From positions 144,202 through 208,201 of the forward strand of contig OZ242195.1 of NCBI GenBank assembly GCA_965205975.1: 64,000 nucleotides of DNA, written 5' to 3'. The DNA is from Candidatus Latescibacterota bacterium. GTDB taxonomy: Bacteria; Latescibacterota; UBA2968. Position numbers and translations under genes: made by a program. The notes under the pieces are model-generated. The model was not told the DNA's origin, searched no databases, and saw only the letters and a program-made list of their open reading frames with translations. This document shows positions 16,198 through 55,886 of the stretch, piece after piece. How positions within the stretch are numbered: the first letter of the stretch is position 1; each line of letters opens with the position of its first letter.

Positions 16198-16582
16198 TGG
16201 TGGAGGCGGCGGGAATCGAACCCGCGTCCGAAAGCAGTTTGATAACGGCATCTACGTGTGTAGTCTATTCACTTAGGATCTCGCATCTCGCGCCCCAACA
16301 GACAGGGTCGCTGAGATGCCAGCCCGATGGTTGGGGCTGTGGCCCGCTCTCATCCGGAGGCCCTCGAGCGGAAACCCCCGCACCAGCCTGCTCTCGTCGG
16401 CGCTCTGCCCAGACCACGCAGGCAAGGTCTGAGAGAACGGACTGCGTAACGGTTAGTTAGGCAGCCATTGCGTACGTGTTATCGTCCGCAGTTGCGTTTT
16501 TTCCCAATTGTTTTACGAGGTGATTGGGCACCTCGACACGCAGCTATTATCTCCCCACCCCCGTCGAAGCCGTGTCGCCCCC
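16198..16582 (-). ncRNA. ssrA: transfer-messenger RNA (tmRNA, SsrA)
   Basis: The 5' end is GGGGGCGACACGGCTTCGACGGGGGTG, the tmRNA tRNA-like 5' consensus. The 3' end is GCGGGTTCGATTCCCGCCGCCTCCACCA (T-arm plus acceptor/CCA). The internal tag reading frame is GCA ACT GCG GAC GAT AAC ACG TAC GCA ATG GCT GCC TAA, giving ...ATADDNTYAMAA-stop, matching the canonical ...YALAA degradation tag. Confidence 0.9.
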
Positions 16583-29848: not shown

Positions 29849-29882
29849 AATTTTTAACTTTTCCTCCCAAACAGTACACGCC

Positions 29883-29917
29883 AAAAAGCTCGACACATTG
29901 TATGCGTCGAGCTTTTT
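29883..29917 (-). terminator. rho-independent terminator downstream of tRNA-Asp
   Basis: Perfect 12-bp stem aaaaagctcgac / gtcgagcttttt with an 11-nt loop. T-runs lie on both sides, so it can act bidirectionally. Confidence 0.7.
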
Positions 29918-29924
29918 GGCAAAA

Positions 29925-30002
29925 TGGCGGGGTAGACGGGGCTCGAACCCGCGACCACCGGCGTGACAGGCCGGTACTCTAACCAGACTGAGCTACTACC
30001 CC
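29925..30002 (-). tRNA. tRNA-Asp (GTC)
   Basis: GGGGTAGTAGCTCAGTCTGGTTAGAGTACCGGCCTGTCACGCCGGTGGTCGCGGGTTCGAGCCCCGTCTACCCCGCCA folds into a cloverleaf with a 7-bp acceptor stem, anticodon loop CTGTCAC and an encoded CCA. Confidence 0.9.
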
Positions 30003-30234
30003 AATGTGTAAAACAATCTTCAAAATTCCATGAAGGACCGAAAATTTAACAAGGTGTCTTTGCAGTGTCAAGCAAATTTAACAAATCACAGAGTAATCAA
30101 CGGACAAGCCTCAAACTAACTATCTTTCAGCATAACAATTCACTATTTGTGTGCACCTTACTTGAGAATTGCGTAATATCAGTATCTTATTATGTTAAGA
30201 CGATTTTGCGCCAAAACTCTCAAAGGAGAATTTT

Positions 30235-33200
30235 ATGACTCGACGCGATGCTGTATGGGTTGTTTGCTTCCTGATCGCAGGTGCGCTCGGTCTCACCTGT
30301 TATATCCAGTTTTTTGACCGCGCGCAGCCCGTTGCCTCGCTCAATTTTCGCGTGGATCGCGAACAAGCACATCAGGCTGCCGAGGCGTATCTTCACCGCC
30401 TGGGTTACGATCTCACAGATTATGAAAGTGCTCAGGTTTTCTCTTACTCCAGTCTGCCCCAGGTCTTTCTCGAACGCACCCTGGGCCTTGAGGAAGCCAA
30501 CCGCCTCGTGCGCGAATGGGTCTCGGTATGGTACTGGAACATCCGCTGGTTTAAGCCGCTTCAAAAAGAAGAACTCCGCGTGCGTATTGATCCCGGCGGA
30601 AGAATTGTAGGGTTTACGCACAGCATTCTCGAATCTGACGAAGGCGCGAGTCTTTCAGAAGAAGATGCCCGTGTTATTGCGGAGGTTTTTTTGACCGATG
30701 TGCAGGGCTTTCAACTCGATGATTACGAATCCATCGAAGCGTCGAGTATTGAGCGTCCCAATCGGATGGATCACACCTTTACTTATCGAAAAAAAGATTT
30801 TGTCTTGGGCGATGATGGGCACTACCGTTTGAGCGTTACGGTTAAGGGTGATAAAGCAGGCTATTTTGCCGAATACCTCAAAGTGCCCGAAACATTTTCG
30901 CGCAATTATCGAGAAATTCGCTCGCGTGCGGGCTTACTTACAAATATTGCTTCGATTTTCTTTTTCGCACTGGGCATTGCAATGGTTGTCGTGCTCGTGC
31001 GAAAATATCGCCAGCACACATTGATATGGCGCGCTGCTCTCGCCGTAGGCATTCTCGTAGCCGCCACCAGTTTCCTCGGTGTCATCAATGGCTACCCGCT
31101 TACGCGCTTCGGTTACGATACCACGCAGTCATTTGTTTCCTTTATTCTTACCTTTATCTTCGGCGGTCTGTTGAGTGCCGTGCTCAGCGGGATTATTATC
31201 GCGCTGTCCGGCGCAGCCGGGGGGGCTGCCGCTCAGGATGTAGAAGGCTGGAAAAATCCACTCGCGCGACTGTCTCTGCGCGGCTGGCGATCGGCGAATT
31301 TTGCGCGCATTACCCTCATCGGTTACGGACTTGCATTTGCACACCTGGGATATGTCACCATCTTTTATATTTTGGGCAATGACTATCTGGGGGTCTGGTC
31401 TCCCGCGGCGATGACACAGTACAGCAATACGTATAGCACATACTTGCCGTGGATCTATCCTTTGCTTATCGGTCTCCTCGCCGCAACTATGGAAGAGTTT
31501 TTCTTTCGCCTGCTCGCCATTTCCCTGCTCATCCGGTATTTAAAAAGCACCTGGTTGGCCGTTCTCATCCCCGCGATTATATGGGCTTTTTTGCATGCGA
31601 ATTATCCGCAGGAGCCTATTTATATTCGCGGTCTTGAACTCACCGTAGTAGGGGTCATATTTGGTATTGTGTTTTTGCGCTACGGTGTTTGGGCAACCAT
31701 TATTTCGCATTATGTGTACAATTGCTTTCTCGGCATTTACCCGATGGTGCAGTCCGATAGTCTCTACTTCAAGGTCTCGGGCATTCTGGCGGTCGCGATT
31801 ATTTTTATTCCGGCCATTCCCGCTATTTTTGGTGTGATCACAGGGCGGTATAAAGAGGTAGAGGGGCCTGAAGAGGTGGCTCCCCCTGAGCTGCCAGAGG
31901 ATACAGCACCTGAAACAGCAATGCCCGAATCCGAACCACCCTCTGAACCCGAGGTCGAACGCAAAACCCCTTCGGATTATCTCATTCCCAAGAGTGGTCT
32001 CGTCGTTTTTGGCGTTCTGGGTCTGATCGGTTGGTCCGTGTATTTCATGTCCGACCTTCCGGGATTTGCCAAATACGCCCGCGAGTCCATTATCACGCGA
32101 GCCGAGGCGATTGAGAAGGCAGAGGATATCCGGCGTCAACTCGGACTCGATCTCGAAGGCTATCAACGCACCACATCGTTTTCCAGCAGTTTTAGATCCG
32201 GCCATTTTACACATCTCATCCGAAATGTCGATCTGGCGCGTGCAGATACGCTCGCTGCCGAGCACACAGCCTCCTGGCGCTGGAGGGTGCGATGGTTCAA
32301 ACCTCTGGAAAAGGAAGAAATCACCATCAGTATTGATGGCAATGGCGATTTTTGCCGCATATCGCATTATGTTCCCGAAAGTCGGGAGGGCGCAGAACTC
32401 AGTACGGAAGAAGCGCAAAAGATCGCCGGGGCTTTTCTGTCCGAATACTTACAGCGCGATGTGACAGATCCCGCACTTTACAAACGCCTTGAAGCCCGCT
32501 CGCAAAAGCGCGAAAACCGAATGGACCATAGCTTTGTGTGGGAGCGTACAGATATCAAAGTTGAAGAAGGAGAATTTCGTATTATCGCCTCTGTGCAGGG
32601 CGATCAGATTGGGCATGCATATAAAGCCTACAAAGCACCCGAAGAGTTTTTGCGCAAATTGCGAGAACGCACGGCCAAAAGTACGATTGTTTCTACTGTC
32701 TCGACAATCGCAGTTCTTGCCACCGCTGTGCTCGCCATTATTTTCTTTTTGCGCGCTTATCGCGATGGACATGTCAACTGGCAATTGCCCATTCGTGTTG
32801 GCATTCTGGCTGGTCTGTGTTTTTTCTTCGAAAGACTCAATAATCTACCTGTGTTCTATAGAGGTTATAATACCAGTGAAGCGATGAGTACCTTTCTCGG
32901 CGGTGAACTCATTGGTCTCGTCATAGATCTTGTTATTGCTGCGATTATGGCTTTTTTATTATGTGCATTTGGCGATACGATGTATCGCCGCGAACGCCCC
33001 CAAGAGATGCAAATTTCCGATTGGATCGATGTGCTTCGTTTGAAGATAAATAGCACAGCACTCTGGTGGCAGATTGTCTTTCTCGCTATCTGCTATTTTG
33101 GGATTACCAGAGGTAACAGTATTTTTTCGTCTTATGTCACCCTCACCTATCTCGGCGACTACCTCGGTGCGGGTGGTGGTGCGCCTCCCGAAATCAACAG

Positions 33201-33633
33201 CTATTTCCCCGCATTTGGCGAACTCATTGATGAAGTTGGCAGTATGCTCATAGCTCCCTTTGCCATTCTGGGTATTCTGTTTGTCTGGTGGCGTGTGATA
33301 GGCAAGATAAATCTGCTGATTCTCGGCGTAGTGCTCGTGCTTATCTTTCAATCTGTGGTCTCTCCAGCGAAAGACTTTTACCACGCAGGTATTCTTCTCG
33401 CTAAAAGCATTCCATATTGGATACTTATGGCTTTCCTCATTTTGAAATATATTCGCTTTAACTTTCTCTTTTACGCCGTAACCCTCTGGTGTTCAATTAT
33501 TTTTGTTGGCGTTCGCTATCTCAAATACGATCCCAGTATTTACCAGATCAATGGCATTCTCATGATTCTTTTTGGCTGCGTTCCCCTCATTCTCGCCGTT
33601 CTGGCCTGGTACAAAGCGCGATCTACGGCGTAA
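30235..33633 (+). CDS. 1132-aa membrane protein: tandem duplication of [extracytoplasmic domain + multi-TM CPBP (CAAX/Abi) intramembrane protease domain], second copy degenerate
   Basis: Copy 1 carries the CPBP motifs EEFFFR (EExxxR), AFLHA (FxxxH) and SHYVYN (HxxxN). The extracytoplasmic modules are homologous (WYWNIRWFKPLQKEELRVRIDPGGRIVGFTHSILESDEGASLSEEDARVIAEVFL against WRWRVRWFKPLEKEEITISIDGNGDFCRISHYVPESREGAELSTEEAQKIAGAFL). The second TM block keeps FYHA but reads GELIDEV where EExxxR would be and has no HxxxN. The two halves are joined by an acidic, Pro-rich linker. An AAGGAG RBS is present. Confidence 0.7.
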   Translation: MTRRDAVWVVCFLIAGALGLTCYIQFFDRAQPVASLNFRVDREQAHQAAEAYLHRLGYDLTDYESAQVFSYSSLPQVFLERTLGLEEANRLVREWVSVWYWNIRWFKPLQKEELRVRIDPGGRIVGFTHSILESDEGASLSEEDARVIAEVFLTDVQGFQLDDYESIEASSIERPNRMDHTFTYRKKDFVLGDDGHYRLSVTVKGDKAGYFAEYLKVPETFSRNYREIRSRAGLLTNIASIFFFALGIAMVVVLVRKYRQHTLIWRAALAVGILVAATSFLGVINGYPLTRFGYDTTQSFVSFILTFIFGGLLSAVLSGIIIALSGAAGGAAAQDVEGWKNPLARLSLRGWRSANFARITLIGYGLAFAHLGYVTIFYILGNDYLGVWSPAAMTQYSNTYSTYLPWIYPLLIGLLAATMEEFFFRLLAISLLIRYLKSTWLAVLIPAIIWAFLHANYPQEPIYIRGLELTVVGVIFGIVFLRYGVWATIISHYVYNCFLGIYPMVQSDSLYFKVSGILAVAIIFIPAIPAIFGVITGRYKEVEGPEEVAPPELPEDTAPETAMPESEPPSEPEVERKTPSDYLIPKSGLVVFGVLGLIGWSVYFMSDLPGFAKYARESIITRAEAIEKAEDIRRQLGLDLEGYQRTTSFSSSFRSGHFTHLIRNVDLARADTLAAEHTASWRWRVRWFKPLEKEEITISIDGNGDFCRISHYVPESREGAELSTEEAQKIAGAFLSEYLQRDVTDPALYKRLEARSQKRENRMDHSFVWERTDIKVEEGEFRIIASVQGDQIGHAYKAYKAPEEFLRKLRERTAKSTIVSTVSTIAVLATAVLAIIFFLRAYRDGHVNWQLPIRVGILAGLCFFFERLNNLPVFYRGYNTSEAMSTFLGGELIGLVIDLVIAAIMAFLLCAFGDTMYRRERPQEMQISDWIDVLRLKINSTALWWQIVFLAICYFGITRGNSIFSSYVTLTYLGDYLGAGGGAPPEINSYFPAFGELIDEVGSMLIAPFAILGILFVWWRVIGKINLLILGVVLVLIFQSVVSPAKDFYHAGILLAKSIPYWILMAFLILKYIRFNFLFYAVTLWCSIIFVGVRYLKYDPSIYQINGILMILFGCVPLILAVLAWYKARSTA

Positions 33634-33647
33634 ATTTGGAGGTATCT

Positions 33648-34862
33648 GTGACTCCTATCTGCACTGCCTGGCAGACTTCAGTAGAGGAGGAGGCTTACTG
33701 GCAGTCGATTCGCAAGCAGTACATGATTGCGCCAGATGAAGTTTATCTCAATACTGGCTCTTTTGGTTCGCAGCCCAGGCCCGTGTTTGAGAAGATGCTG
33801 GAAATATTGGAGGATGTTGAACGCAATCCTACGCGACATCGGGCGGAATACAACAGCGTTGTAGATAACTCTCGTGCCCACCTGGCAGCGTTTGTCAATG
33901 CGCCGGCAGAGGATATTGCTTTTGCCACCAATGTCACTATGGCTATCAACATGGTTGTGCATGGTCTGGATTGGCGGCCAGGCGATGAAATTCTGGCTTC
34001 AAATCAGGAATACGGCGCGATTGACAACTGTCTGCATCTGGCTGAACGCCGCTATGGCGTGGTGGTCAAGCGTGCCGAAATTCCCATTCCTCCCGAACAT
34101 CCCGAAGATATTCTGAACGCTTTTGAGGCTGAATTTACAGATCGTACAAGGCTGGTTTTTTGCAGCCATATTACCACTCGTACTGGTTTGATCACTCCGA
34201 TTAAAGCGCTGACCCGACTGGTACACGACCGCGGTGCGCTAATTGCAGTAGATGGCGCGCATGCCCCGGGGATGATCCCGCTGGATCTGCAGGACCTCGG
34301 TTGCGATTTTTACGGCGGCAACTGTCACAAATGGCTCTGTGCACCCAAAGGCACTGGTTTGCTTTATGCATCATCTTCAATGCAAGAGCGACTCAATCAC
34401 GTCGTTGTGAGTTGGGGATATAGCCAAGAAGGCGCGAAGAGAGGGGCAGACGGCATTCTGCGTATCAATGACCGTCCGTTTATGTGGGGGATTGAGAACT
34501 GGGGCACCCGAGATCAGGCGTGTTTTGCGGCTGTAGGGGCAGCGGTTGAATTTCAAGAGGCGGTTGGCAAAGATCGGATTCGAGAACGGGGGCAACAACT
34601 GGCGGCGTACCTGCGAGGTCGTTTGGCTGCAACTGGCTGGGCAAAACAGCTCACGCCTTCCGTGCCAGCTCTATCCGGATCGATCTCGGCTTTCCATCTT
34701 TCTGGATTCGACGATCTGGATCTTTATGAGCGATACCGGATCACTGTGCCGACTGCAAAGAGCGATGATGTTTACTGGATCCGCGTTTCTACCCATATTT
34801 GCAATGGCTTTGACCATGTAGATCGTCTGATAGATGCTTTACGCGAAGAGAGAAATGCCTGA
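33648..34862 (+). CDS. class V PLP-dependent aminotransferase (cysteine desulfurase / isopenicillin-N epimerase-like)
   Basis: MIAPDEVYLNTGSFGSQPRPVFEKM ... CSHITTRTGLITPIKAL ... GGNCHKWLCAPKGTG. The PLP-lysine is in HKW. The start is a GTG at 33648 with a GGAGGT RBS, 15 nt after the upstream stop. Confidence 0.7.
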   Translation: MTPICTAWQTSVEEEAYWQSIRKQYMIAPDEVYLNTGSFGSQPRPVFEKMLEILEDVERNPTRHRAEYNSVVDNSRAHLAAFVNAPAEDIAFATNVTMAINMVVHGLDWRPGDEILASNQEYGAIDNCLHLAERRYGVVVKRAEIPIPPEHPEDILNAFEAEFTDRTRLVFCSHITTRTGLITPIKALTRLVHDRGALIAVDGAHAPGMIPLDLQDLGCDFYGGNCHKWLCAPKGTGLLYASSSMQERLNHVVVSWGYSQEGAKRGADGILRINDRPFMWGIENWGTRDQACFAAVGAAVEFQEAVGKDRIRERGQQLAAYLRGRLAATGWAKQLTPSVPALSGSISAFHLSGFDDLDLYERYRITVPTAKSDDVYWIRVSTHICNGFDHVDRLIDALREERNA

Positions 34863-34874
34863 ATTGTTTTGTGT

Positions 34875-36668
34875 TTAAGAATTTACCTCGCGGAATCCTT
34901 TGGGCAAATCTTCTCCTTTCACAAGTGCGGCCTTCAATGCGCGTGAGTGCTGACAATTTCCTCTGTATTGAAATCCGCGGCAGGCACAGGACACGTCGTT
35001 TCCATCTACTTCTAATTCGTAAAAAGCCCCCGGTCGTGACGAACTTTCCGCGCGATACTTTGCAATTTTGGGTCCACTCAATACTCGTGCCAAAATCTCA
35101 ATAGCTTCTTGAGATGGTTGTTGTCGTTCAACTGGTTTACCTGTGCCAAATGCCTCTGCGTGCGTTTCCCGAAAGGCCGCGCTTGCCTCGCGCAATACAT
35201 CGCCCATTTTCGTCCCGTCCATATTTGCAGATAAAGCATCTACTCCGGGTTGCAATACATCCATAATGCGTCGCATTTCACCCATCACGTCACGATGGAA
35301 ATCTTCGGGTAGCGCGCTGCCTTCCACCATCTGATCGATCAAATTCGCTTTTGTTTCCAATACTGTGCGCACAAATGTATCAACTGTATCGCGTCCAACC
35401 ATGTACGTCACATTTACCGTACCGGTCTGACCAATGCGATAAGCCCGGTCTTCGGCTTGCCAGTGATTAACCGGTACCCAGTCCAGGTCGTTAAAAATGA
35501 CCTGGCGAGCTGCTGTCAGGTTTAGCCCCACGCCGCCTGCTGTGATATTTGCCAGTAATAATCGCACGTCATCGTCTTCCTGAAACCGATCCGCCCTTTC
35601 TTGCCGTTGTGCTACCGGCACTTCACCTGTAATGACCACGGCCTGGTCGCCAAATTTTGTTTTTAAAATTTCCAGTGGGCGCAAGAAGCACGAAAATACT
35701 ATCGCTTTTTCTCCTTGATCCACCACATTTTCTACAAAGGGCAATGTCGTTCGCACTTTGGATGTCGCCAGGCGAAGCCTTGCTCTTGTCAACTGTCCCA
35801 GCGCCTGCCCCCGTTCTTCAGATGAAGGGGATTCTTCTAAAGTCTCTCGCACTCCTCGTCGAGAATATTTCCGCAGGAGATCCAGAACGGCTGTGCTCAT
35901 TCGATGTGCGACCCGACTCGATACATCCACATCTAACCACGTCCGTATTTTGGGTGGCAAATCCAGGACCTGATTCTTTGTCCGCCGCAGCATTATTCCG
36001 TGCAAATGTACGGTTAATTCTTCGATATTACTCGCGCCATCTGTTATCCAGCCATATTCCCCCTTATGCGCATCGCAATACCGTTTTGCAAACCCCATAA
36101 AGCTGCGTCCCAGAGCGTGTCGAGCAAGTTGTAGCAATGGGAATAGATCTCTTGGCCGACTCGTCAGGGGGGTGCCTGTCAAGATATGCACCACTGTTTC
36201 TTCGGGTAATTGCTTTACCAGTTGCATGGAAAATTTGTGCCGCTGACTGCGGTGGTTTTTCAAATAATGCGCCTCGTCAAAGACAACGCCTTTCCAGTCC
36301 AGCGCGCATAATGTATTGATGTGCTTGCCCAGGATATCGTAATTGACAATCGCCCAGCCTTTAAACCCCGACCCGGGTGGATCGTCCGGTCCAATAATCC
36401 ATGTCTGTACACGCGGTAGAACAACCGCAATTTCTCTCGCCCAATTGCGTTTTACTGTTGCCGGACAAATCACCAGATACGGTCCTTTGGGTTCGGTTTG
36501 TGACATGGCAATCACGGACTGCCGCGTTTTGCCCAGTCCCATGTCATCGGCTAAGATCGATCGCCGCCGCCCCATCAAAAACGCGATGCCCTCTACTTGA
36601 TGTGGATAAAGTCCTTTGGCGATATCTGTTGCACGGTTGAGTATTGCTGTATCGAATGTTTCTGCCAT
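34875..36668 (-). CDS. SNF2-family helicase with a C-terminal SWIM zinc finger
   Basis: Helicase motif I ADDMGLGKTRQSVIAM, motif II DEAHYLKN and C-terminal helicase motifs. The C-terminus has a CxCx(n)CxH SWIM-type finger (VSCACRGFQYRGNCQHSRAL). The start is MAETFDT at 36668. Confidence 0.75.
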   Translation of the reverse strand: MAETFDTAILNRATDIAKGLYPHQVEGIAFLMGRRRSILADDMGLGKTRQSVIAMSQTEPKGPYLVICPATVKRNWAREIAVVLPRVQTWIIGPDDPPGSGFKGWAIVNYDILGKHINTLCALDWKGVVFDEAHYLKNHRSQRHKFSMQLVKQLPEETVVHILTGTPLTSRPRDLFPLLQLARHALGRSFMGFAKRYCDAHKGEYGWITDGASNIEELTVHLHGIMLRRTKNQVLDLPPKIRTWLDVDVSSRVAHRMSTAVLDLLRKYSRRGVRETLEESPSSEERGQALGQLTRARLRLATSKVRTTLPFVENVVDQGEKAIVFSCFLRPLEILKTKFGDQAVVITGEVPVAQRQERADRFQEDDDVRLLLANITAGGVGLNLTAARQVIFNDLDWVPVNHWQAEDRAYRIGQTGTVNVTYMVGRDTVDTFVRTVLETKANLIDQMVEGSALPEDFHRDVMGEMRRIMDVLQPGVDALSANMDGTKMGDVLREASAAFRETHAEAFGTGKPVERQQPSQEAIEILARVLSGPKIAKYRAESSSRPGAFYELEVDGNDVSCACRGFQYRGNCQHSRALKAALVKGEDLPKGFREVNS

Positions 36669-36767
36669 AGAGATGACCGGTTTAGTGAATTTAGTTGCTT
36701 TTAATAGAAGTCTTTTCTTTTTTAAATATAGTTTATACTTTGCTTTTTGCAATCGGCAAACTATTAA

Positions 36768-55810: not shown

Positions 55811-55886
<76 letters not shown>

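Follow-up and report, generated by a model that had tools for sequence, protein, structure and literature searches.

A large CPBP protein of Latescibacterota composed of a catalytic-type module and its degenerate paralogue

Prokaryotic CPBP proteins include both enzymes and scaffolds, and a given member can seldom be assigned clearly to one or the other. They are abundant and largely uncharacterised, with MrtX as a demonstrated active bacterial CPBP protease (PMC11980579); SpdC and Abx1 are CPBP/Abi proteins that act through contacts between transmembrane (TM) segments with their partner proteins, WalK and CovS (PMC5854430), and LnsB is a non-catalytic CPBP protein that serves as the obligatory partner of an enzyme (PMC13559823). 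Among PepSY proteins, YpeB keeps the envelope lytic enzyme SleB inactive (bioRxiv 10.64898/2026.06.01.729290). Here, we analyze a 64-kb stretch of DNA from a Candidatus Latescibacterota bacterium (assembly GCA_965205975.1, contig OZ242195.1, positions 144,202 to 208,201 of the forward strand; hereafter the window), which encodes an 1132-amino-acid (aa) protein made of two paralogous modules, each consisting of a TM helix, a predicted periplasmic tandem PepSY-like ectodomain and nine further TM helices. This architecture is clean, ancient and widespread, and it brings known CPBP and PepSY-like parts together in a combination that we did not find described: within an incomplete full-text coverage, which does not prove absence, the literature yielded neither a tandem active/dead (pseudoenzyme) CPBP protein nor a CPBP-PepSY fusion, also when approached via DUF4901.

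To compare the two halves, we aligned residues 1-572 with residues 573-1132 and obtained a single collinear alignment of 555 residues (28% identity, BLASTP E=6e-49), in keeping with the internal duplication proposed in an initial annotation made by reading the sequence. For the membrane domains alone, the BLASTP match was local, covering the first helices (E=4e-8), and we therefore built family alignments (A1, 26 sequences; A2, 89 sequences, the homologues to which all counts out of 89 refer) and compared the sub-profiles of the halves using hhalign. These comparisons gave E=1e-63 for ectodomain 1 vs. ectodomain 2, a similarity on which the annotation had depended, E=3e-25 for the whole membrane domains, E=2e-22 for their N-terminal four helices, and E=1.6e-9 to 2.2e-9 for the CPBP core region (96% probability, collinear), compared with E=1e-3 to 0.3 in controls using mismatched regions or reversed sequences. 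The duplication therefore covers the whole module, far beyond what would be expected by chance from membrane-protein composition. The linker between the modules, which had been described as acidic and proline-rich, does contain 12 Glu and 10 Pro per 43 residues (aa about 540-582); throughout the family, Glu and Pro each account for 18% of the linker, whose length is 33-60 aa, and it is the sole disordered stretch of the AlphaFold2 model, where the predicted local distance difference test score (pLDDT) falls below 50 at residues 545-571.

The AlphaFold2 model of the full chain, built from the 89-sequence alignment, has a pLDDT of 90.0 and a predicted template modelling score (pTM) of 0.85, and module 2 modelled alone reaches 92.8 and 0.86. 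As anticipated from the sequence, both halves show the same order of elements (a TM helix, an ectodomain of two alpha + beta-sheet sub-domains, and nine long helices), with equal helix counts in the two modules. A model of 1132 residues with a pTM of 0.85 implies that the two modules would take up a definite position relative to each other, and in this model the CPBP fold is recognisable in module 1 and module 2 appears diverged in structure as well as in sequence. Hydropathy and the distribution of Lys and Arg indicate 10 TM helices per module, with short Lys/Arg-rich loops on the predicted cytoplasmic side, which fits a topology with the N-terminus inside, both ectodomains periplasmic and the linker cytoplasmic; the even number of helices in module 1 is what would put both ectodomains on the same, periplasmic side. 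Alignment A1, used as a sequence profile against the PDB, brought up no relative, the best match having E=0.39.

Catalytic residues divide the two modules sharply. The Pfam profile for Rce1-like/CPBP proteins (PF02517) matches at aa 405-498 only, with E=1.1e-13 and 51.7 bits against a gathering score of 22.4, and this region holds all three catalytic motifs (Table 1), whose residues are kept in 88-89 of the 89 homologues, so that the annotation of a catalytically complete first copy stands. Its wording of motif 2 is to be amended: the His is present, in a motif that reads WxFxH rather than FxxxH. Position 496, in motif 3, is N or D in 89/89 homologues. Across the larger set of 230 full-length family proteins, EExxxR is found at the module-1 site in 227; among the three others, one is truncated at its N-terminus, which shifts the motif, and in another the pair is E-D, a replacement of E-E seen in the family representative P0248. 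Module 1 is thus a member of the CPBP/Rce1-like family by hidden Markov model (HMM), motif and fold tests, and its sequence predicts a catalytically competent glutamic intramembrane endopeptidase of the CPBP/Rce1 type. Separately, we note a family representative of 1120 aa, P0252, in which EExxxR, WxFxH and HxxxN are unrecognisable even in module 1, and which may be a fully inactive variant.

In module 2, the position of the Glu-Glu pair is hydrophobic in 89/89 homologues, EExxxR is found at the equivalent helix in 0/230 full-length relatives, and neither HxxxN nor the catalytic Glu-Glu/Arg is present. The sole catalytic-type residue left is H1050, within 'DFYH' (64/89), the one His that had been noted as surviving in a degenerate second copy. 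Module 2 has conserved residues of its own, namely R1074 (74/89), N1076 (79/89) and Y1080 (82/89). No PF02517 match to the second half was obtained at E<=1, and none at E<=10 when module-2 cores were taken from 10 diverse relatives; homology to the module-1 CPBP core is detected at E about 2e-9. Since it fails the HMM and motif tests of the CPBP family, module 2 should be called a CPBP-derived pseudo-protease domain, its CPBP ancestry resting on end-to-end paralogy with module 1. The motif counts in the 230 full-length proteins indicate that the active/dead asymmetry is ancestral to the family.

Both ectodomains match DUF4901 (PF16244) in Pfam and pass an HMM test as well as a fold test for the tandem alpha + 4-stranded-beta PepSY arrangement, and searches with them also brought up M4/M36 propeptides and YpeB. 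We therefore describe as tandem PepSY-like domains, in agreement with the DUF4901 match to both, what had been called duplicated sensor-like ectodomains; the duplication holds, and the domain type is the correction. The Pfam PepSY profile itself (PF03413) gave no match, DUF4901 being the only one of the two obtained. Column conservation across the 89 homologues is 0.64 and 0.54 for the two ectodomains, compared with 0.41 for membrane domain 2.

We next consider how widely this double-module form occurs. An exhaustive profile search over 1.84 billion cluster representatives returned 4243 representatives at E<=1e-3 and 1683 at E<=1e-30, and among the best 150 of the latter nearly all are about 1100-1230 aa long and match profile positions 1-1130 in one stretch, the remainder being shorter fragments; these 150 were filled by double modules and their fragments, with respect to a possible occurrence of single-module (about 550 aa) homologues. 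A word-indexed search, which reaches close relatives only, added more than 120 proteins of about 1120-1150 aa carrying the same Pfam pair under generic public names ('CPBP family intramembrane metalloprotease/glutamic endopeptidase' or 'type II CAAX endopeptidase family protein'). The window protein is 93% identical to proteins on the Latescibacterota sequences OZ244847.1 and OX638329.1, and double-module records span at least eight phylum-level labels (Latescibacterota, Gemmatimonadota, Acidobacteriota/Terriglobia, Firestonebacteria, Verrucomicrobiia, Methylomirabilota, Handelsmanbacteria and Chloroflexota). Two diverged paralogues, one sharing about 68% identity with the window protein and the other about 47%, occur together on single Latescibacterota chromosomes, such as OZ242180.1 (L029/L036) and OZ220733.1 (L025/L041), and both paralogue groups keep the active/dead asymmetry. 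By these sequence matches, the double-module protein belongs to a large conserved family of mostly uncultured bacteria, so that the architecture is unusual, as had been stated, when set against typical CPBP proteins of 200-300 aa, and not in the sense of being rare.

This distribution also bears on whether the gene could be an artefact, that is, two neighbouring genes that an error in assembly or sequencing has joined, or an accident confined to one lineage that left the second half functionless. The sole point in favour of such an origin is the unusual length, and we consider it highly improbable, because independent assemblies from many phyla, complete chromosomes among them, encode more than 200 full-length proteins with the same unbroken architecture; these relatives rule out a fusion artefact. 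Module 2 is moreover under purifying selection (92% identity to P0001 across module 2, and residues conserved family-wide), and the shorter relatives that we examined are located at or near contig ends, as with P0087 and with P0164, the latter on a contig of 2.5 kb. The truncated form P0087 (673 aa) is identical on three independent metagenome contigs (L004, L005 and L006), each ending about 100 bp past the stop, which points to an insertion element or a repeat at which the gene and the assemblies alike are broken.

We consider the best explanation of these observations to be a single-chain pseudo-heterodimer, in which an active module 1 is combined with a dead module 2 kept for a non-catalytic role, and we give this reading a probability of roughly 0.55. 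The two membrane domains would pack side by side, module 1 would cleave an envelope protein within a membrane-embedded or juxtamembrane segment, and the inactive module, together with the paired periplasmic PepSY ectodomains, would dock, select or gate the substrate, or auto-inhibit the enzyme. Module 2 is dead and conserved, with its own conserved residues and the same helix count as module 1; the full-chain pTM, which is about the same as that of module 2 alone, suggests that the modules pack against each other; and retention of the double-module form across its phylum-level labels points to selection. The end-to-end duplication supports this reading as well, and MrtX, SpdC, Abx1, LnsB and YpeB, introduced above, serve as precedents for its parts. 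Several observations weigh on the other side. To our knowledge, proteolysis has never been shown for most prokaryotic CPBP proteins, and the activity of module 1 is a prediction; no substrate, partner or conserved neighbour gene was found, the genomic context varying by lineage; the model informs on the contact between the modules, and on the side of access to the active site, through its pTM only; and the predicted periplasmic loops are only slightly more conserved than the cytoplasmic loops, a difference too small to serve as a clue to the side on which the active site opens, a use that we dropped.

According to the main rival, no part of the protein is proteolytic, and it would act as a scaffold or chaperone in the manner of SpdC, Abx1 or LnsB, binding the TM helices of partner enzymes or kinases and regulating these partners, with the PepSY ectodomains holding a periplasmic enzyme (e.g., a cell-wall hydrolase) inactive and the 'catalytic' residues serving in binding or structure. 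Known non-catalytic CPBP proteins have eroded motifs, with motif conservation in LnsB being marginal according to its authors (PMC13559823), whereas the module-1 catalytic residues and EExxxR are kept almost without exception across phyla and are completely lost in module 2, which is the pattern expected from selection for catalysis in module 1. This contrast disfavours a pure scaffold, which we regard as unlikely. A further possibility, which is a special case of the pseudo-heterodimer, is a signal-activated protease for regulated intramembrane proteolysis, in which the PepSY domains would sense a periplasmic ligand or the state of the envelope and lift auto-inhibition, upon which module 1 would cleave an anti-sigma factor or a membrane-anchored regulator. 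Inhibition of peptidases or regulation is a known function of PepSY domains, including the M4/M36 propeptides and YpeB matched here, and outside the catalytic parts nothing in the protein is better conserved than the ectodomains; against this stand the lack of any sigma factor, anti-sigma factor, kinase or regulator gene as a conserved neighbour, the position of the gene in this lineage among housekeeping genes (mfd, tRNA-Asp, class-V aminotransferase and ilvC), and the fact that no ligand-binding feature was identified, and we rate this version as quite improbable.

The family matters for several reasons. One chain carries an invariant catalytic module and a paralogue that lost catalysis before the family radiated, offering a natural internal control for separating the contributions of catalytic motifs from those of scaffold surfaces, and the fusion to pairs of PepSY domains, which are tied to the inhibition or regulation of envelope hydrolases, suggests a built-in regulatory lid. 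A functional assignment would annotate thousands of genes across several major environmental phyla, and the model, at pLDDT 90, makes structure-guided mutagenesis feasible.

Table 1 Features of the double-module CPBP gene and its upstream region (positions in the window)
Feature	Position	Strand	Remarks
Double-module CPBP protein, complete open reading frame, 1132 aa plus stop	30235..33633	+	homologues full-length at about 1120-1150 aa
Shine-Dalgarno AAGGAG	30223-30228	+	6 nt 5' of ATG; GGAG invariant in 13 relatives
TM1 of module 1, aa 3-30, N-terminus predicted cytoplasmic (MTRRD)	30241..30324	+	hydropathy, positive-inside count; AlphaFold2 helix 3-30
Predicted periplasmic ectodomain 1, aa 31-232, tandem PepSY-like pair	30325..30930	+	Pfam DUF4901
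Membrane domain 1, aa 233-540, nine helices	30931..31854	+	
CPBP/Rce1-like core within membrane domain 1, aa 405-498	31447-31728	+	
Motif 1, E420-E421-F-F-F-R425 (EExxxR)	31492..31509	+	E, E, R invariant 89/89
Motif 2, W450-A-F452-L-H454	31582..31596	+	W, F, H invariant 89/89
Motif 3, H492-Y-V-Y-N496 (HxxxN/D)	31708..31722	+	H 88/89; N 67/89, D 22/89
Predicted cytoplasmic Glu/Pro-rich disordered linker, aa 541-580	31855..31974	+	composition; pLDDT below 50
TM1' of module 2, aa 581-606	31975..32052	+	hydropathy/positive-inside; AlphaFold2
Predicted periplasmic ectodomain 2, aa 607-812, tandem PepSY-like pair	32053..32670	+	paralogue of ectodomain 1
Membrane domain 2, aa 813-1132	32671..33630	+	degenerate paralogue of membrane domain 1
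Direct repeat AAATTTAACAA, two exact copies	30042-30052, 30074-30084	.	32 bp start to start
Promoter-like site TTGACA-17-TAAATT	30071..30043	minus	10/12 match, TG extension; sigma-70-like

The 1132-aa reading frame is uninterrupted and begins at the first start codon following a stop in the list of open reading frames of the window, with its N-terminus and ribosome-binding site kept in homologues. A frame of 292 aa on the minus strand (31540-32418), antisense and wholly inside the CPBP gene, is most likely spurious. The intergenic region 5' of the CPBP gene spans 232 bp (30003-30234) and is bounded by a minus-strand tRNA-Asp gene (GTC; 29925-30002), and it contains the direct repeat that the initial annotation had pointed out upstream of the gene. 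The repeat is real and exact, and AAATTTAACAA occurs only these two times in the window, compared with 0.07 expected. Its placement coincides with a promoter-like site about 40 nt upstream of tRNA-Asp: one copy provides the -10 hexamer, and the other sits just upstream of the -35 hexamer, in the place of an A/T-rich UP-like element. This repeat/promoter block is kept in 11/13 close relatives, with large indels between the block and the CPBP ribosome-binding site. Given the promoter match and the conserved block, we rejected the repeat as a regulator site of the CPBP gene, and the simplest reading is that it would belong to the tRNA-Asp promoter. Downstream of tRNA-Asp, a hairpin with a 20-bp stem (29921..29879, minus strand) overlaps the listed GTG start of mfd (29896), and the true mfd start may therefore be further downstream; the mfd homologue in the close relative L001 has 1146 aa, compared with 1151 aa here.

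Upstream of the CPBP gene lie the divergent tRNA-Asp and then mfd, and the further neighbours in this lineage are a class-V aminotransferase, an SNF2 helicase and ilvC. The aminotransferase gene (33634-34862 region, plus strand) most likely starts at GTG 33648, with GGAGG at 33638-33642, 14 nt past the stop codon of the CPBP gene, from which no terminator-like site separates it; the listed 457-aa frame from 33489, which overlaps the CPBP gene, is probably too long. Pairing of the CPBP gene with the aminotransferase is found almost only in Latescibacterota loci (16/17). Between the aminotransferase and ilvC, a 625-aa SNF2-family helicase is encoded on the minus strand (34875-36752; Pfam SNF2-rel_dom and Helicase_C), whose core resembles the ZorD and DpdE models of PADLOC, and which looks like a variable insertion because in L001 ilvC directly follows the aminotransferase. 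Membership in a defence system was rejected, with 0 PADLOC families at E<=0.01.

Comparing neighbourhoods more broadly, an all-against-all BLAST of the open reading frames from 80 loci revealed no co-varying neighbours common across phyla. Synteny was seen within lineages only: paralogue group A is accompanied by mfd, the class-V aminotransferase and ilvC, and group B, the second paralogue group, by a Zn-dependent alcohol dehydrogenase and an Ldh_2-family protein, with none of these neighbours common to Acidobacteriota or other phyla among the same loci. A role as a bacteriocin immunity or Abi-type CPBP protein was likewise set aside, given the length of 1132 aa, the housekeeping-type neighbours and the lack of a conserved neighbour. 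Elsewhere in the window, we observed a tmRNA gene on the minus strand (16198-16582; Rfam RF00023, 189.7 bits) with the tag peptide ADDNTYAMAA, and a tRNA-Lys (CTT) gene at 55811-55886.

Placed beside known systems, the protein departs from Rce1/CPBP, the type II CAAX prenyl endopeptidase (PF02517; MmRce1, PDB 4CAD), which consists of one 8-TM domain of about 250-330 aa and lacks an ectodomain. In the window protein, the core forms part of a 10-TM module that also carries a predicted periplasmic PepSY pair of 200 aa, a dead paralogous module is joined to it in the same chain, and no prenylated or lipidated substrate is implied. Mrt-type sorting proteases (MrtX, MrtS) and an ABC-permease/CPBP fusion are the closest curated NCBIfam matches to module 1, which is a member of neither family, scoring 20.9 bits against a cut-off of 130 for MrtS (NF040589) and 26.5 bits against 435 for the fusion (NF041647), the latter over the CPBP end of the profile only; among the neighbours at the loci examined, no adjacent CTERM-tagged substrate or ABC ATPase gene was found. 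The closest systems further include SpdC (LyrA) of Staphylococcus aureus, a CPBP/Abi-domain protein that partners the glucosaminidase SagB (PDB 6U0O) as well as the kinase WalK, and the PepSY-domain proteins YpeB (PDB 5BOI), FoxB and the M4/M36 protease propeptides. YpeB is bitopic and regulates a separate lytic enzyme, SleB, whereas the PepSY pairs described here are fused to polytopic CPBP domains.

A likeness in concept exists with APH-1 of gamma-secretase, which Pei and co-workers reportedly proposed in 2011 (J Mol Biol 410:18) to be a catalytically inactive CPBP relative: in both cases an inactive CPBP-derived polytopic domain would act as a scaffold or docking partner in an intramembrane protease assembly. 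By this analogy, we tentatively offer the more speculative idea, which we hold with well under even confidence, that the protein may correspond, in bacteria and within one chain, to the intramembrane proteases built from several subunits, in that an ancient duplication produced an obligate pair, the dead paralogue would form a docking exosite, and the PepSY pairs would form a periplasmic lid inhibiting or gating the active site. If true, the family would constitute a new class of gated envelope proteases that is widespread among little-studied phyla, including Latescibacterota, Acidobacteriota and Gemmatimonadota, and that differs from gamma-secretase, which is assembled from separate chains and whose catalytic partner is an aspartyl protease with no relation to CPBP proteins.

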